64,000 bases of DNA from a virus (Duplodnaviria; Heunggongvirae; Uroviricota; Caudoviricetes), in the IMG/VR virus record IMGVR_UViG_3300011972_000167, one strand, 5' to 3'. A model generated the notes under the pieces. That model saw nothing but the letters and a program-made list of their open reading frames with translations, ran no database searches and was not told where the DNA came from. Below are positions 1,464 to 37,106 of this stretch, one piece after another (positions within the stretch are counted from its first letter, which is position 1; each line of letters opens with the position of its first letter). A program made the position numbers and the translations under genes.

Positions 1464-2333
1464 ATGAAATTATTTAATAATTCTAAAAATAAGAATAGAG
1501 AAAACGGTATGTATAACACTAATATCAATAAAGGTAAGAGTTTTATGCCTATTGCTACTGTGTGTGCAGTTACTGTAGTTGCTATGGCTTGGGTAGGTTT
1601 TACAGGCAGAAAAGCTGAAGAAACTGTTAGTGTTGTAATGATAAAAGAGCCAATGTATAAAAATGAAGTCCTAACAGAAGATAATATGATGGAATACAAA
1701 ATGATTAGGGCTGAATATGATAAGTATGCCATTAAAAGAAGTGATGGTACTATATCTCAAAGATTGATACTCTGGAAAGACAAAGAAAAGGCTATAAATA
1801 CTTTCGCAGCTTATCCGTTACAAAAAGAAAGTTTATTAGAGGCTAGGAGTCTTATTGTAAGTAGGGTAGATAATACTGATAGCGTATTATATGCTTTTCC
1901 GAGTAAAGAGATAGTAGAATTGGAAGTAGGTGGAAGTGAGCTAAACTCCTTTAAGACTTTCTTACAGCCTGGAGATAGGGTCAATGTTGATGCTATATTC
2001 TCTGAGCGTATACAAAGGGAAAAAAGTGATGGATATGGTGGAACTGTTATGGAAGATGTGGAAGTAAGTAAGACAGAGCCTGTTTTCACCAGTATTATGA
2101 TAGCTGATATTATAAATGGACAAGGACAGTCAGTATTAGATATTTACCAAAAATATAATAATGCAACTGTTCAAGAGCAAGCAGCGCTTGATGCTTCAGA
2201 TGAGTTTAGACAGCAAACAGAGCCTAAGACATTGTTAGTTGCTTTAACTCCAGATGAAAAGGATAGATATTATCAGTTTTTATCTAAGAACAATAATAAG
2301 TTTAGAATCAGTTTACCTCAAAGAATTAAATAG
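1464..2333 (+). CDS. Hypothetical membrane-anchored protein (single N-terminal TM)
   Basis: 289-aa ORF with an RBS-like AAAGG upstream and an N-terminal hydrophobic segment IATVCAVTVVAMAWVGF. No recognisable catalytic motif. Confidence 0.4.
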   Translation: MKLFNNSKNKNRENGMYNTNINKGKSFMPIATVCAVTVVAMAWVGFTGRKAEETVSVVMIKEPMYKNEVLTEDNMMEYKMIRAEYDKYAIKRSDGTISQRLILWKDKEKAINTFAAYPLQKESLLEARSLIVSRVDNTDSVLYAFPSKEIVELEVGGSELNSFKTFLQPGDRVNVDAIFSERIQREKSDGYGGTVMEDVEVSKTEPVFTSIMIADIINGQGQSVLDIYQKYNNATVQEQAALDASDEFRQQTEPKTLLVALTPDEKDRYYQFLSKNNNKFRISLPQRIK

Positions 2334-2962
2334 TTTATAGGAGGACATATTTTATGGGAAAACTAACAGTTATATAAAATATTATTAAATATAGTTAAAT
2401 TTATATAATTGTACAAATAGAAAACCCCCTTCATTTGGAAACAAGTGAAGTGCTTTGTGTTAAAACTAGGAAACCATAAAGATTAGCTATACTACAACAT
2501 AATCCAAAAGATAAGTGTGAATGTTGCGAAAGCAGAAAAAAATAGCTAATATGACCTATGCTGAAATAAAAGCATACTGTATATAGATTTTAGAATAAAT
2601 AGTGACCACTATAATACAGTATGTGCTAAGGGTACATCAGTTGAAGCTAAAAATAATAACTGATTATTTTAATTGGTATTTAGTTGCGAAACTCTATTAA
2701 AAGAGTACGCCCAACGACTAGGAGATTGAGTCTCCCCCTGTAAATAAGGGATAACCGTGATAACGGAAAAGTAAAACTGCAAGCAATATAAGTGACAAGT
2801 TCTTTATAAAAATGGCAGAAGAAAAATACAACATCGTGAATTAAAATTCAAGGTGAACATATAGTCTACGCTTATACGAAAGTATAAGAGGTCTGCTAGT
2901 GATAGTAAGACTGCATTAGAAGTTGCGTTCTAATGTGAATAGGGAAAATCTACTTAAATATA

Positions 2963-2991
2963 TTGAAATTTATTTTAATATGTGTTATAAT
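2963..2991 (+). promoter_or_regulatory. sigma-A-like promoter for tnpA (copy 1)
   Basis: TTGAAA - 17 nt - TATAAT about 25 nt upstream of the RBS GAGGTG and the ATG at 3016. Confidence 0.45.
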
Positions 2992-3015
2992 AACCCTTGA
3001 AAGTGAGGTGAAATT

Positions 3016-3630
3016 ATGGCACTGATGTCAATAGGAAAATTTGCTAAAGAAATAGGTTTAAGTGTTCAGCATTTAAGAAAGCTTCATGAAGATAATATTT
3101 TAGCTCCTGCTGTAATAACTAAAGGTGGAACTAGGTATTATTCAGATGAACAACTTTCAGAATACTTAAATAAAGATAACAAACCACAACAATTACCTAT
3201 TATACTGTATGCAAGGGTTTCCACTCGAAGTCAAAAAGATGATTTAGATGGACAGGTGGAAAATCTAAAATTGTATGCAATTTCAAAAGGCTATTCTTTT
3301 GAAATAATAACTGATATAGGTAGTGGTATCGATTATACTAAACATGGATTAAAGCAGTTAATTCAGAAAATAAACAATAAAGAGATATCTAAAATAGTAG
3401 TTCTTTATAAAGATAGGCTTATTAGATTTGGTTTTGAATTGATTGAATATCTTTGTGAACTTAATAATGTAGGTATAGAAATAATTGATAACACAACTAT
3501 ATCAAAAGAAACTGAGCTAACAAATGATTTAATTCAAATTATTACTGTATTTGCTAACAGATTGTATGGATCTAGGTCTAAAAAGACATTAAGATTAATA
3601 CAAGAGGTGAAATCAAATGGTAATCATTAA
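3016..3630 (+). CDS. tnpA: IS607-family TnpA: MerR-like HTH fused to serine recombinase (resolvase) catalytic domain
   Basis: N-terminal HTH (SIGKFAKEIGLSVQHLRKL). Resolvase motifs YARVSTRSQ (catalytic Ser), and GSGIDYTKHGL / LIRFGFELIEYLC, shared with the paralog at 34.8 kb. Overlaps downstream tnpB. Confidence 0.75.
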   Translation: MALMSIGKFAKEIGLSVQHLRKLHEDNILAPAVITKGGTRYYSDEQLSEYLNKDNKPQQLPIILYARVSTRSQKDDLDGQVENLKLYAISKGYSFEIITDIGSGIDYTKHGLKQLIQKINNKEISKIVVLYKDRLIRFGFELIEYLCELNNVGIEIIDNTTISKETELTNDLIQIITVFANRLYGSRSKKTLRLIQEVKSNGNH

Positions 3631-4735
3631 AGGATATAAAATTAGATTATTACCTACTTTAGAACAAGAAATACTTATAAAAAAATCAATAGATGTTTCA
3701 AGGTTTGTTTATAACTGGTGTCTAAATAAACAGCTTAGTTCTGATAAATTTATTAGAGATAACGAATTAAGAAAAGAATTAACTAAATTAAAACGAACAG
3801 ACAGTTACTATTGGTTAAATGAAGTAGGTTGTAATGTAATAAAACAATCAGCAAAAGATTTATGTAATACTTACAAGAAATTTTTTAATAAACTATCTAA
3901 TAAACCAAGGTTTAAGAAAAAGGGTGTTCATAATTCATTTTATGTTAATTATGAAACTATGAAAAAGACTAAGCATGGTGTTAGGTGTGAAAAAATAGGT
4001 GATATTAAAACATCTGAAAGATTGCCTAAACTTATACAAGATAAACATTATATGAATCCTCATATAGTTTTTGATGGAAAATATTACTACATAACTTTTA
4101 GTATAGAAATAAATATAGAACTAAAAGAAAATACATCAAAAATTATAGGCATAGATTTAGGAATAAAATCATTTGCAGTATGCTCAGATGGTACTTTTTA
4201 TAAAAATATAAATAAAACGCATACAGTAAAAAAGTTAAATAAAAAATTAAGAAGATTACAACGATGTGTTAGTAAAAAATACCTTAAGAATAAGATGGGT
4301 AATAAATTTATAAAAACAACGAATATTATAAAACTTGAACATAAAATAAAACTTATACATAGAAGAATAAAAAATATTCGTGAAAATTATATTCATCAAA
4401 TAACATCTCACTTGGTGAAAACCAAACCAAGCAGAATAGTTATAGAAGATTTGAATATAAAAGGAATGTTAAAAAACAAGCATTTATCAAAAGCTATTGC
4501 TGAACAGTGCTTTTATAAGTTTATAAGTGTTTTAGGATATAAATGTGATTGGAATAATATAGAACTTTTAAAGGCAGATAGATTTTATCCCTCAAGTAAA
4601 AAATGTTCTTGTTGTGGAAATATTAAAAAAGATTTGAAACTTAAAGACAGAATTTACAGATGTGGTTTTTGTAGTTTAATAATAGATAGAGACTTTAATG
4701 CAAGTCTAAATTTAGCAAATTATAAATTAGCATAA
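3617..4735 (+). CDS. tnpB: TnpB (IS605/IS607 OrfB family RuvC-like RNA-guided nuclease)
   Basis: N-terminal KIRLLPTLEQ...RFVYNWCLN. RuvC-I IGIDLGIKSFAVCSDG. RuvC-II IVIEDLNIKGMLKN. C4 zinc finger CSCCG...CGFC. RuvC-III DRDFNASLNLAN. Confidence 0.85.
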   Translation: MVIIKGYKIRLLPTLEQEILIKKSIDVSRFVYNWCLNKQLSSDKFIRDNELRKELTKLKRTDSYYWLNEVGCNVIKQSAKDLCNTYKKFFNKLSNKPRFKKKGVHNSFYVNYETMKKTKHGVRCEKIGDIKTSERLPKLIQDKHYMNPHIVFDGKYYYITFSIEINIELKENTSKIIGIDLGIKSFAVCSDGTFYKNINKTHTVKKLNKKLRRLQRCVSKKYLKNKMGNKFIKTTNIIKLEHKIKLIHRRIKNIRENYIHQITSHLVKTKPSRIVIEDLNIKGMLKNKHLSKAIAEQCFYKFISVLGYKCDWNNIELLKADRFYPSSKKCSCCGNIKKDLKLKDRIYRCGFCSLIIDRDFNASLNLANYKLA

Positions 4736-4885
4736 AGTTAAAATTAAAAACAATGCTAATATGTACCGTTCGATACACGGGAATTTAAGCCTTTGGAGAG
4801 TTATATCAAACTAAAGTAGCTTTTTAGCAAAATAGGACTCTGTGAACAAGGAAGTTTTAATCGTGAGATGAAACATAGTAAAAAT
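4736..4885 (+). ncRNA. Putative TnpB omega-RNA / right-end structured region of IS607 copy 1
   Basis: Directly 3' of tnpB. Sequence blocks are conserved with the equivalent position of copy 2 (36592-36735) even though the two proteins are only about 50% identical. Ends with ATGAAACATA at 4868-4877. Confidence 0.35.
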
Positions 4886-5077
4886 TGACATTGATTTATA
4901 TTTAAGTAAATTTTTCGTATCGGTTTAGATGATATAATAGAGAAAGCCATAGTTACAGAAGATAGTGGTAATGATATCAGAGAAACTGCTAAGAAAGTTA
5001 CTAAAGGCATAGTAACTGAAATAAGCGGAAAAGATAATAATGTTATTAAGCCTGTTATAAATAATGTTATAGGTTTT

Positions 5078-5812
5078 ATGTCTGCTGGAGGTGGGGCAGG
5101 GGCAAGTACTATAGTAGCTAATACAGCTAAATTAATAAAGAAAAAGGGTTTATCTGTAGCTATAGTGGATTTGAATATAGTTTATCCGAGTCAGCATTTA
5201 TATTTTTCCATACCACAGGAGTTGGGTAGAAATGATATCTATAGTTTAATGTCAGGTAAGTCAGAACTAGGAGCAAGTTTAGTATACTCTAGTGATATAG
5301 CTTTGTTATTAGCAAATAATCGTGGAATAGTTGATTATATAAATGGAGATGATAAATATTTTTCAGCTAACCTTGAAAAAGCAATAGATAATTTAAGTTA
5401 TCGTTTTGATGTAGTTTTGATTGATTGTCCTTTGGATGTTTCTAATAGCTATGTAAATGCATCCTTATACAAGATAGATACATTATATTTAGTTATAGAT
5501 GATGGTGTTCAATCAATTATAAATGTACCAAAGATAAGAAATGCTTTTGACAGATTCGGTATAGGTTTTGGAAAGTGTAAATTTATAATGAACAAGAGAA
5601 CCAGTAATTTTTATAATGAGAGCAATCTAAATAAGGCTGGTATTAAATTAATTGAGATTATACCTTTTGATTTAGGTATAATAACATCAGGATTAAGATG
5701 TGAATTATATGTAGATAAGGGAATTGGTGTAGACAAGACTAGTAAAGAAGTTGAGAAAGCTTTTAATAGTTTATGTGAAAAAATACTAAGTATAGGGGGA
5801 TATAAGAAGTAA
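5078..5812 (+). CDS. CpaE/TadZ-like MinD/ParA-fold ATPase (ATPase domain only; N-terminus uncertain)
   Basis: Deviant P-loop VIGFMSAGGGAGASTIVANTA straddling the annotated ATG. MinD-like LIDCPLD (Walker B-like). Position is immediately 5' of cpaF as in tad loci. In-frame ORF is open back to 4910 without a canonical start codon. Confidence 0.5.
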   Translation: MSAGGGAGASTIVANTAKLIKKKGLSVAIVDLNIVYPSQHLYFSIPQELGRNDIYSLMSGKSELGASLVYSSDIALLLANNRGIVDYINGDDKYFSANLEKAIDNLSYRFDVVLIDCPLDVSNSYVNASLYKIDTLYLVIDDGVQSIINVPKIRNAFDRFGIGFGKCKFIMNKRTSNFYNESNLNKAGIKLIEIIPFDLGIITSGLRCELYVDKGIGVDKTSKEVEKAFNSLCEKILSIGGYKK

Positions 5813-21558: not shown

Positions 21559-22905
21559 ATGCTGAGACAGAAATATACAACTGTTACTCAACTACATAAG
21601 ATTAATAACAAAGACATTATTGAGTATTTTGAAAATGCTTCTGTATATTTCTGCAAATTACAGAGAAAAGCATTCCATATATTCAAGAATGAAAGTATAA
21701 AAGGAAATAAAGTTGAATATAGCAAATTTAGACAAGTTTTTATGAAAGAACATAATATCAGCAAGAGAACCGCAGACTCTATATTAAAAGATGTTCAAGG
21801 AAAAGTGAAGGCGCTTACTGAATTAAAAAAATACGAAGTTTCCCAAAAGGAGCAGAAAATTAAAAAAATTAAAGAAGAAATTGAAAAACTCGACATTAAG
21901 ATTCTAGAGTTCCAAGAAAAAATGAAAAATAAAATAAAAGTTAATCATTTTAACTATTGGAACTTAAAAAAGTCAAGAGCATTTAAGAAAATGAAGCTGA
22001 ATAAACTTCAGATGAGACTTGAGCAGCTCAGGTGGGAAATAGAAACAGGGCATTATAAGTTATGTTTTGGAACTAAAAAACTTTTAAATTCTGATAAAGA
22101 AAAATTTATTTTACAGCGTGACAGTCAGATGGGATATATTGGGTGTCAAGAAGAAAAAGGAAGAAATAGTGTGTTTCAGTTGAGTTATAATAGTATAAAT
22201 AACCAGTTTCTCATTAAATTAAGGAAAGATTTTGGATTTGATACAGAAGAAAAGTATGTATTTGGAAAATGCTATTTTAATAATCATAAAAACAAACTGA
22301 TAGATGCATTGGAAAATAAAAATTCAACTCCATTGACATATTCAATAAGCAGAAAAAATAGAAGATATTATTTACATTGCACTTTTGAATATAGGATTGA
22401 AAGTAAAGATTTATTTTCAACAAGAAAGGATTACGGAACTATTGGAGTTGATTTTAATAAAGGGTTTTTGACGGTTTCTGAAATAGACAGGAATGGCAAT
22501 CTTGCTAAAACTGACACCCTTAATTATCGCTTTGGAAAAGGAAATAAAACACAATCAGATTTAGAAAATTGTATTTCCAAAATATTAAGAAAAGCTTTAG
22601 AGGTAGGAAAGGATGTGTGCCTTGAAGATTTGAACTTCAATAACACAAAAGCTAAAACAGTGAAAGGTAAAACTGACAAAGGTAAAAAATACAATGATAT
22701 GCTGCATAGTTTGGCATATTCTTTATACGACAAGTTAATAACTAATATTGCTTTTAGAAATAAAATAGGAATTATAAAAGTAAATCCAGCATGGACTAGC
22801 TGGATTGCTAAAAATAAATTTTGTGAAAGAATGAAGTTAAATATACATACAGGAGTAAGTTTTGTAATAGCAAGGCGTGGATTAGGAATTAGAGATATAA
22901 TATAA
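21559..22905 (+). CDS. TnpB-like (RuvC-fold) protein lacking the zinc finger and with a long non-TnpB N-terminal region
   Basis: RuvC-I-like TIGVDFNKGF. RuvC-II-like VCLEDLNFNN. NPAWTSW in place of the TSQ-CxxC region (no CxxC...CxxC). Terminal HTGVSFVIARRG aligns with the RuvC-III DRDFNASLNLAN stretch of the window's TnpBs, but with Gly at the Asp position. N-terminal 290 aa include a K/E coiled coil. Confidence 0.45.
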   Translation: MLRQKYTTVTQLHKINNKDIIEYFENASVYFCKLQRKAFHIFKNESIKGNKVEYSKFRQVFMKEHNISKRTADSILKDVQGKVKALTELKKYEVSQKEQKIKKIKEEIEKLDIKILEFQEKMKNKIKVNHFNYWNLKKSRAFKKMKLNKLQMRLEQLRWEIETGHYKLCFGTKKLLNSDKEKFILQRDSQMGYIGCQEEKGRNSVFQLSYNSINNQFLIKLRKDFGFDTEEKYVFGKCYFNNHKNKLIDALENKNSTPLTYSISRKNRRYYLHCTFEYRIESKDLFSTRKDYGTIGVDFNKGFLTVSEIDRNGNLAKTDTLNYRFGKGNKTQSDLENCISKILRKALEVGKDVCLEDLNFNNTKAKTVKGKTDKGKKYNDMLHSLAYSLYDKLITNIAFRNKIGIIKVNPAWTSWIAKNKFCERMKLNIHTGVSFVIARRGLGIRDII

Positions 22906-23300
22906 AACTTATATTCTGGATAAACTTGTATTCATCCAAGAGAATGGAGCAAGTCACTTTACAGAATTAAAATAAGTAATACATTTCAGTATTGATAAAG
23001 ACTTACATATAAGTGAAATTCTGAAATGATAGGATAACCGTATGTCCTTTAGTACAGTTTGTATTATAAAAATAATCTTGAATAACTTTGGATAAGTTTT
23101 CAAGTTACGGTGTGAGACCTAGTAGTGAGATGCTAAGATTGGCTTTATCTGAAAGGTTTATTAGGATAAACACATTAGAGGGAATGGAATTTTTGCATCT
23201 AGGGCAAGTTTTAGTTAAATGAGTACATGGGGAATTTTATCCTGTACCTCATGAAAAATTTATACAATTATATGATATAGTTAAATAAGGAGGGGATAAA

Positions 23301-36764: not shown

Positions 36765-37106
36765 ATGGATTTTGATAAGGAAAGTCATGCAGATAGTGAA
36801 GAAAGTAAAGATACTTTAGATATACTAGAATCTGTTTCAGATTCATTTATAAATGGAATGGTTTGGCATTTGTTTTCGGGTTCTATTTTGTTTTTGATAT
36901 TGTCTTTTATTTCATTCTTTATAACTGAAGAGGTAAAATCTCTTGATGAGGTTATATTTGGTTTATTGACCTATATTAAAATTGCAAGTTTAGCTCTAGG
37001 TTTAACATTTTTATTATCATTCTTTATTAGTATATTTGTATTAAGTAAAGATAAGGGAATGACAATAAAAGAGTATATAGACAGCTTAAAAAAGAAGTAT
37101 AAATAA
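36765..37106 (+). CDS. Small membrane protein
   Basis: 113 aa with two TM helices and an acidic N-terminus. Confidence 0.4.
   Translation: MDFDKESHADSEESKDTLDILESVSDSFINGMVWHLFSGSILFLILSFISFFITEEVKSLDEVIFGLLTYIKIASLALGLTFLLSFFISIFVLSKDKGMTIKEYIDSLKKKYK

Follow-up and report, generated by a model that had tools for sequence, protein, structure and literature searches.

IStrons are elements that splice themselves out of messenger RNA and leave the exons rejoined scarlessly (PMC4227781; bioRxiv 10.1101/2023.11.20.567912), an activity shown directly for BcISt1 (PMC4227781) and CboIStron (bioRxiv 10.1101/2023.11.20.567912; PMC13521648). Their reported features are a TGGG target, a terminal CGG or UCGG, and transposon ends that double as splice sites (PMC4227781; bioRxiv 10.1101/2023.11.20.567912; PMC13521648). 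Here we analyse a 64,000-nucleotide stretch of DNA from a Caudoviricetes virus (IMG/VR record IMGVR_UViG_3300011972_000167), hereafter the window, in which a 2565-bp insert splits a TadZ-like gene of a tad-like operon without truncating it. We are confident that this insert is an IStron and that the gene is intact but split, and we hold it highly likely that 2359-4923 is an autonomous IS607-family IStron, the gene being split at its start and rejoinable by splicing. The order of its parts (group I IA2-like intron, tnpA, tnpB, right end) is that of CbISt3, SrISt1 and BcISt1 (Bacillus cereus), with which it also has in common insertion at TGGG, a terminal CGG, an AU-rich inverted-repeat (IR) stem and the lack of a target duplication. 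The analysis established the boundaries of the element, its homology, conserved and covarying helices, intact proteins and an in-silico joining of the exons.

The boundaries (2359-4923, + strand) come from comparison with three element-free homologous loci: L001, a metagenome locus with a 98% identical protein, in which the stop of a 289-aa gene is followed by TTTATAGGAGGCGTAAGTTTATGGGTTTAGATGAT; L002, on a 300-kb contig (...GAGGAGATTCACTTATGGGTTTAAATGAT); and L066, on a 295-kb IMG/VR contig (...GAGGAGATAAGTAGTTTATGGGTTTAAATGAT). All three show the pattern AGGAGG-N9-ATGGG followed directly by TTTAGATGAT, the empty sites reading AGGAGG or GAGGAG and then ...ATGGGTTTA(G/A)ATGAT. In the window the 289-aa gene ends at 2333 and is followed by TTTATAGGAGGACATATTTTATGGG, with an ATG at 2354-2356, and then by the foreign AAAACTAACAG, and host sequence restarts at 4924 with TTTAGATGAT. 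The junctions ATGGG^AAAAC...TATCGG^TTTAG (carets mark junctions throughout), set against the empty site ATGGGTTTAG, have GG on both sides and equal the three empty sites base for base, with no host base lost and no target-site duplication. The last conserved block of the element, ...AAATTTTTCGTATCGG, ends at 4923 in the 3' alignment, and the TGGG at 2355-2358 and the CGG at 4921-4923 agree with the insertion and end criteria for group B IStrons (PMC4227781). This TGGG is the IS607/TnpB target-adjacent motif (TAM), and it overlaps the start codon. A first-pass annotation had already recognised an IS607-family element that makes no target duplication, and both points are borne out; it had drawn the element from 2950 to 4877, however, about 590 bp short of the true left end, and had placed it flush against the operon, whereas it lies within the operon, in the same orientation, between a CpaB-like gene and the next gene. 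That annotation had further supposed that the 5' part of this next gene was removed together with its promoter. Nothing was deleted, as the three empty sites show, and what stands of the proposal is that the start codon and the ribosome-binding site are separated from the gene at the DNA level; both are intact at 2339-2358, and nothing else is separated from it.

Downstream of the element lies an open MinD/ParA-type frame (4910-5812), whose earliest ATG, GTG or TTG is at 5078, inside GFMSAGGGAGAST; on this the first-pass annotation and the listing of open reading frames (ORFs) agree. The lack of a canonical start codon between 4910 and 5078 is what speaks for a plain IS607 insertion by which a CpaE/TadZ gene lost its 5' part, receiver domain and promoter included, so that the first gene of the operon is left truncated and defective; classical TadZ and CpaE proteins do carry an N-terminal receiver-like domain. 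The homologues tell otherwise. All 61 that were found with the whole open frame are 293-350 aa long (mostly 293-311) and cover 82-99% of the frame, or 94-99% for the 40 closest, and the 11 that were aligned all begin M-G/N/A exactly at the I-G-L-D-D of the window, the 98% identical P0001 beginning MGLDDIIEK. No receiver domain is present in any of them (61 found, 11 aligned), and about 50 residues precede the P-loop; the receiver domain of about 130 aa that had been thought missing is thus no part of this family. Comparison with loci free of the IS, which had been set as the refuting test for truncation, returned the same short gene, with its start 5 nt before the element's right end. Since, in addition, the empty sites have nothing missing, the operon continues upstream of the element and the truncation model ignores the 657-bp intron module, a truncated gene is exceedingly improbable.

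When 2354-2358 and 4924-5812 are joined in silico, they give 894 nt encoding 297 aa, MGLDDIIEK...GGYKK*, a protein 98% identical to P0001. It contains a MinD/ParA-type nucleotide-binding domain (Pfam AAA_31, 30.6 bits against a cut-off of 27; ParA, 29.1 against 27.1; MipZ, 28.5 against 20.7) and does not reach the curated CpaE/TadZ model (CpaE_hom_Actino, 24.8 bits against 154); the label 'TadZ-like' comes from context only, the gene lying between the CpaB-like gene and a T2SSE-type (CpaF/TadA-like) ATPase.

From the left end to tnpA there are 657 bp (2359-3015), which align end to end with CbISt3, SrISt1 and the element of Fusobacterium phage Fnu1, in each case from the very first base and with TGGG before it. 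Two core motifs of group I introns, CAACGACUA and AACAUAUAGUCU, are present, and the region matched by Rfam holds the signature UGAAcAUAUAGUCU, after which comes a GAAA hairpin. The conserved core, invariant in 21 relatives, comprises P7 with J6/7 (CAACGACUA) and J8/7-P7 (AUAUAGUC), with G4923 as terminal G; the helix names, given with their coordinates in Table 1, are our own assignment by analogy with IA2 introns. In minimum-free-energy folds of three of four elements the exon GGG (2356-2358) pairs with a conserved CCC (2425-2427) to form P1 around a long AU hairpin, with P2 directly after. A scan of viral contigs for the P9 pattern returned 57 loci, from which 21 distinct sequences were aligned over P7-P9.2. 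The structure was drawn on the window sequence and pairs were counted only on this half, because a whole-core MAFFT alignment mis-registered P3-P7.1 between two intron subtypes; P3, P4 and P5 were inspected by hand. Standard pairs occupy 89.7% of cells among the 21 relatives, compared with 33-45% when the 3' partners are slid by one to three columns; 23 of the 40 pairs have changed on both sides, and none of 500 shuffles reached the observed pairing or covariation score. Pairing is 96-100% in P7.2, P9, P9.1 and P9.2, and P4/P5 shows compensatory changes even in comparison with the nearest relatives (GCG/CGC in the window, ACG/CGT in the viral relative L053, ACC/GGT in Fnu1). A P10 between the 3' exon and the internal guide was rejected, the UUU/AAA that alone can be drawn being meaningless in sequence of 30% GC.

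The IR stem is the strongest inverted repeat in the element. Its arms, 24 nt long, AU-rich and 88% complementary, enclose the greater part of the right end along with tnpA, tnpB and the promoter, and the stem ends 3 nt short of the terminal CGG; in group B IStrons such stems measure 15-34 bp, exceed 80% AU and likewise surround the ORFs (Tourasse et al. 2014, PMC4227781). The right end contains a RAGATH-18 motif, the core of IS607 TnpB guide RNAs (PMC11061315). At the 3' end the window, CbISt3, SrISt1 and Fnu1 all read ...CGTA(T/G)CGG and share ...TTTTTCGTATCGG, and their similarity stops there. The C. botulinum IStron has TGGG as its TAM and a scaffold ending in ...UCGG (bioRxiv 10.1101/2023.11.20.567912), and those of the window element are exactly TGGG and UCGG. 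Guides are about 18 nt (bioRxiv 10.1101/2023.11.20.567912) or 20 nt (PMC11061315) long, and TGGG plus the predicted guide, from 4924 onward, matches the L001 empty site exactly.

Both proteins score above curated cut-offs. TnpA matches Pfam Resolvase (75 bits) and MerR as well as NCBIfam transpos_IS607 (202.8 bits, cut-off 110), and its catalytic YARVS (RVS) motif is kept in alignment to 3lhf. TnpB matches NCBIfam guided_TnpB (276 bits, cut-off 100); aligned to PDB 8iaz, its RuvC motifs GIDLG, IEDLN and DRDFNA and its CxxC...CxxC zinc finger are intact, and an exact protein look-up has no identical sequence on record. Its best solved relative is PDB 8iaz (entry name 'Transposase', E=2e-72), which we take to be the TnpB of the IS607 element ISFba1, whose paper (PMC11061315) cites 8IAZ. 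The best promoter-like site of the region precedes tnpA, at an alignment position where Fnu1 and SrISt1 have TTGACA...TATAAT, and is probably the element's own promoter; the read-through into the downstream tad-like genes that had been suggested earlier is plausible. An outward-facing promoter-like site (4885-4912, TTGACA-16-TAAATT) lies in the right end, 11 nt before the boundary, and its TTGACA is kept in the relatives L053 and L057; it may drive the downstream genes or be a mere part of the guide RNA scaffold.

A search of phage and plasmid records with BLAST gave three relevant elements, of which ISCbt4 of Clostridium phage c-st is CbISt3 and that of Selenomonas ruminantium pSRC1 is SrISt1, both published IStrons (PMC4227781). 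The window element shares about 64% nucleotide identity with CbISt3, the 5' and 3' non-coding parts align with their counterparts in the group B IStrons, and its 2565 bp compare with published sizes of 2559 and 2583 bp, the published lengths of CbISt3 and SrISt1 being 5 bp longer than delimitation at TGGG^...CGG^ gives. Its subtype differs from published group B elements in extra hairpins after P7.1, a P7.2 insertion and a shorter P4-P5, and its intron begins with A, where U has been noted in several of them. The closest annotated relative is the third element, the Fnu1 IStron (L003, MK554696.1 32557-34549, 1993 bp, intron plus tnpB, in the tail-gene region), with 70.7% identity over 72% of the query, the same intron subtype and the same TGGG^A...TATCGG ends; it differs in lacking tnpA and in a host of another phylum, and its genes are annotated only as 'transposase' and hypothetical proteins. 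This IStron, unannotated as such, splits a 'DUF1983 domain-containing protein' from the next 'hypothetical protein', the two forming one open frame once joined. The Fnu1, c-st and Selenomonas elements (L003, L004, L005) all interrupt ORFs, and joining at TGGG^...CGG^ gives a single open frame in each case. Two 88% identical derivatives, L053 (2175-4160, - strand), which lacks tnpA, and the nearly ORF-less L057 (9957-11009), have the ends TGGG^AAAAC...ATATCGG^ and occupy one and the same insertion site on two viral contigs, with an ORF open across the junction. L057 has lost nearly all of tnpB, which suggests internal deletions in L053 and L057 after insertion, like those of published ORF-less BcISt1 copies. 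The comparison extends to CboIStron and CseIStron-1/-2 (Zedaveinyte et al., bioRxiv 10.1101/2023.11.20.567912; PMC13521648), which have the same 5'-TGGG-3' TAM and target, GG core and ...UCGG end and whose splice sites are likewise the transposon ends, so that the model of splicing in competition with omega RNA maturation would transfer directly. Those elements were tested experimentally and reside on a toxin plasmid or chromosome, whereas the host replicon of the window element looks like a phage-like element of about 300 kb; unlike them, the window element has a target that overlaps the start codon and an exon 1 with a coding part of 5 nt.

For splicing, excision and cleavage activity we draw on the publications on related IStrons, which together with the features described above suggest the following scheme. 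TnpA would have inserted the element at the TGGG lying over the start codon of the tad-like operon's second gene (ATGGG^TTTAG...). In the operon transcript the exon GGG would pair with the internal CCC (P1), and the AU-rich IR stem would bring G4923 to the ribozyme core. Self-splicing between 2358 and 2359 and between 4923 and 4924 would then join ATGGG to TTTAGATG, with a predicted spliced junction ...TTTTATGGG^TTTAGATGAT, and so restore the 297-aa frame behind its own ribosome-binding site; in unspliced RNA the frame that opens at ATG 2354 encodes a 7-aa peptide, MGKLTVI. The right end would serve twice, as scaffold of the TnpB guide RNA and as 3' splice-site region of the intron. RNA that is unspliced or initiated internally would be the source of TnpA, of TnpB and of a guide RNA that has the first 18-20 nt of exon 2 as its guide, and TnpB with this guide would cut the empty site (TGGG plus guide, i.e. 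TGGG-TTTAGATGATATAATAGAG) and thereby maintain the element.

Several points weigh against this scheme. With Rfam Intron_gpI (RF00028) the module scores 19.4 bits against a gathering threshold of 50, in a permissive local search of 701 nt in which the full model length matched 2655-2888 (E=0.016); at gathering thresholds Rfam finds no group I intron at 2359-3015, and the structural claim therefore rests on homology and covariation. P8 is length-variable, poorly aligned and 61.8% paired, the assignments of P3 (ambiguous), P6 and P10 are weak, and J8/7 is GAACAUA where GAAGAUA is commoner, a change found throughout the subtype. The 5' exon ends in ...UGGG, with G for the canonical U and so without the U-G wobble of P1, an exception that experiments have shown in BcISt1 and that is described for group B IStrons as a whole (PMC4227781). 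Splicing reached 80% in one of two native C. senegalense IStrons and about 2% in the other (bioRxiv 10.1101/2023.11.20.567912), and because native levels vary so widely the TadZ-like gene could be largely silenced despite an intact intron. In a rival reading the IStron undergoes little or no splicing, the TadZ-like gene being effectively knocked out, the insertion persisting through TnpB maintenance and the downstream tad-like genes depending on the operon promoter or on the internal or outward promoters of the element. Such an outcome is favoured by the 2% splicing of that one native element, by the repression of splicing by TnpB and omega RNA structure in related IStrons (bioRxiv 10.1101/2023.11.20.567912), by the intact tnpB and the full omega RNA scaffold kept here, by the two promoter-like sites and by the low Rfam score. 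The last of these, however, points to an insensitive model rather than to decay, since SrISt1 scores 49.7 bits with the same model and a search of the whole CbISt3 locus gives nothing at E<=1. Ribozyme core, IR stem and terminal 18 nt are conserved, the helices pair through compensatory changes, and the relatives lie inside phage-gene ORFs with frames open across the junction. Nor is exon 2 decayed in comparison with L001, from which the joined gene differs at 34 nt (29 synonymous and 4 non-synonymous codons, junction identical), although this ratio tells the history of two lineages and not the time since insertion. Poor or absent splicing is thus unlikely in our judgement, if well worth keeping in view, and we lean towards splicing that would be efficient enough to keep the gene functional.

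Translation without splicing, from ATC 4919, an ATA or ATT codon or ATG 5078, would exploit the frame open from 4910 and an ATC at the exact position of the ancestral ATG, but no Shine-Dalgarno sequence precedes 4919, and a start at 5078 costs 56 conserved residues and breaks the GFMSAGGG motif; we find it scarcely credible. As a mutated or alternative start the ATC (4919-4921) was rejected: all related elements end in ATCGG irrespective of their flanks, the ATC belongs to this terminus, and its position is a coincidence. Returning to the spliced IStron, production of the TadZ-like protein would depend wholly on splicing, because the target lies across the start codon and leaves exon 1 with no coding sequence beyond ATGGG. 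Given the repression of splicing by TnpB and the omega RNA fold in related elements, it is conceivable, if improbable, that the IStron would act as a transposon-controlled switch or dimmer in a jumbo-phage-like genome, uncoupling synthesis of the TadZ-like protein from the tad-like genes downstream, for which the element's own promoter could continue to provide transcripts.

Table 1. Positions, in window coordinates, of the split gene, the IStron and its parts, the upstream gene and a second IS607 element.
Feature	Position	Strand	Basis or remark
Upstream operon gene, 289 aa, weakly CpaB/RcpC-like	1464-2333	+	RcpC 16.4 bits (below cut-off), pilus_cpaB 17.4 bits
Shine-Dalgarno AGGAGG of TadZ-like gene	2339-2344	+	Upstream of insertion; position as in L001
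Exon 1 coding part, ATGGG (start codon and GG of codon 2)	2354-2358	+	Empty sites; TGGG^A flank common to Fnu1, CbISt3, SrISt1, L053/L057
Complete IS607-type (group B) IStron	2359-4923	+	Empty-site comparison; 5' and 3' alignment to published IStrons; relatives ending at same base
Group I intron ribozyme module	2359-2962	+	Rfam Intron_gpI; alignment with CbISt3 and SrISt1; covariation
P1 extension hairpin	2366-2412		
P2	2429-2450		
P3	about 2676-2681 with 2824-2829		
P4-P5	2684-2711		
P7 5' strand	2712-2720		In CAACGACUA
P7.1	2721-2735		
P7.2	2777-2818		
P8	2832-2855		
J8/7 and P7 3' strand	2856-2867		
P9	2871-2888		
P9.1	2891-2911		
P9.2	2914-2935		
IR stem 5' arm	2939-2962		
Promoter-like site TTGAAA-17-TATAAT, upstream TG	2963-2991	+	Best of 33 sites; 11/12 matches; ahead of tnpA
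tnpA, IS607-family serine recombinase, 204 aa, N-terminal MerR-type helix-turn-helix	3016-3630	+	Pfam, NCBIfam, alignment to 3lhf
tnpB, RNA-guided endonuclease, 372 aa, overlapping tnpA	3617-4735	+	Pfam, NCBIfam, PDB match
Right end and omega/reRNA scaffold	4736-4923	+	RAGATH-18, IR arm, conserved end
RAGATH-18 motif	4790-4853	+	69.2 bits against gathering 44.9; same place in 4 relatives
IR stem 3' arm	4897-4920	+	
Terminal UCGG	4920-4923	+	G4923 is predicted intron terminal G and 3' splice site
Predicted omega RNA guide TTTAGATGATATAATAGAGA, about 18-20 nt	4924-4943	+	Doubles as first bases of exon 2
Exon 2, third base of codon 2 through stop	4924-5812	+	297 aa when joined to 2354-2358
Copy 2 tnpA	34745 or 34805 to 35416		
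Copy 2 tnpB	35413-36591		
Copy 2 RAGATH-18	36642-36715		

The element belongs to a described class, and the current understanding of IStrons is unchanged by it; mildly unusual are the target over the start codon, the diverged subtype with its extra P7.1/P7.2 elements and the apparent phage-like replicon of about 300 kb. It is an annotation trap, in that gene callers see a 5'-truncated or pseudogenised gene beside an 'IS607 transposase' where the gene is probably expressed by way of RNA splicing. It also adds a full-length, apparently autonomous IStron, with tnpA, tnpB, omega RNA and ribozyme intact, to relatives in phage contigs that lack tnpA or all ORFs, and offers a natural case of a TGGG target that coincides with an ATGGG start. 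Other IS607 TnpB targets are AGGAG or GAGGG (PMC11061315); such G-rich targets resemble ribosome-binding sites and start regions, as seen again in a second IS607 element of the window (copy 2), which follows a Shine-Dalgarno-like G-run and ends 4 nt before an ATG.

Among the genes around the IStron, the 289-aa type of gene also lies 20-21 bp upstream of the TadZ-like ATG in L001 and L002, with the TadZ-like gene directly next. The Walker A region of the TadZ-like protein (5069-5107, GFMSAGGGAGAST), which reads SAGGGAGAST, has no lysine, and the same holds in all aligned homologues, with G62, G64, S66 and T67 invariant; these proteins are probably atypical or non-hydrolysing relatives of MinD/ParA. 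Searched against genome contigs, the joined protein matched only unrelated MinD-like loci at 24-41% identity, and every tblastn match of the neighbouring secretion ATPase among plasmids and phages was below 30% identity. All ORFs of appreciable length in the window lie on the + strand and most have no family match, those that do being RecJ-like, DNA polymerase A and clamp-loader-like. Contigs of 295-307 kb, one of them in IMG/VR, carry relatives of the tad-like locus, L002 and L066 included. A jumbo phage or phage-plasmid may be the source of the window, with a tad-like set (CpaB-like, MinD-like and CpaF-like ATPase genes) that is only a distant relative of known ones (<30% identity).

Copy 2 (34698-36760, ending ...GTAACGG at 36760) is an intron-less IS607 element. 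Like ISFba1 (PMC11061315), it has in common with the IStron a TnpA, a TnpB, RAGATH-18 downstream of tnpB, a target rich in G and a CGG terminus, but such elements have no ribozyme module and no means of removing themselves from mRNA; no match to the ribozyme module of the first element (2359-3015) was found in copy 2. It lies between a stop codon TAG (34694-34696) with the G-run and the ATG at 36765 of a 113-aa ORF, a position that cuts this ORF from its likely ribosome-binding site with no RNA removal possible. The sole good Shine-Dalgarno sequence in copy 2, AAGGAGG, has an in-frame ATT 9 nt on (both within 34789-34807), whereas the listed TTG at 34745 lacks one, and its tnpA may start at this rare ATT codon. 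An IS605-orfB-I RNA (22915-23114, 119.5 bits, above gathering) directly follows a 448-aa ORF (region 21559-23114), which has no Pfam or PHROG match and a faint TnpB likeness (TIGR01766, 19.5 bits; GVDFN and LEDLN motifs) and may encode a TnpB-like nuclease that has diverged very far, the RNA being its guide.

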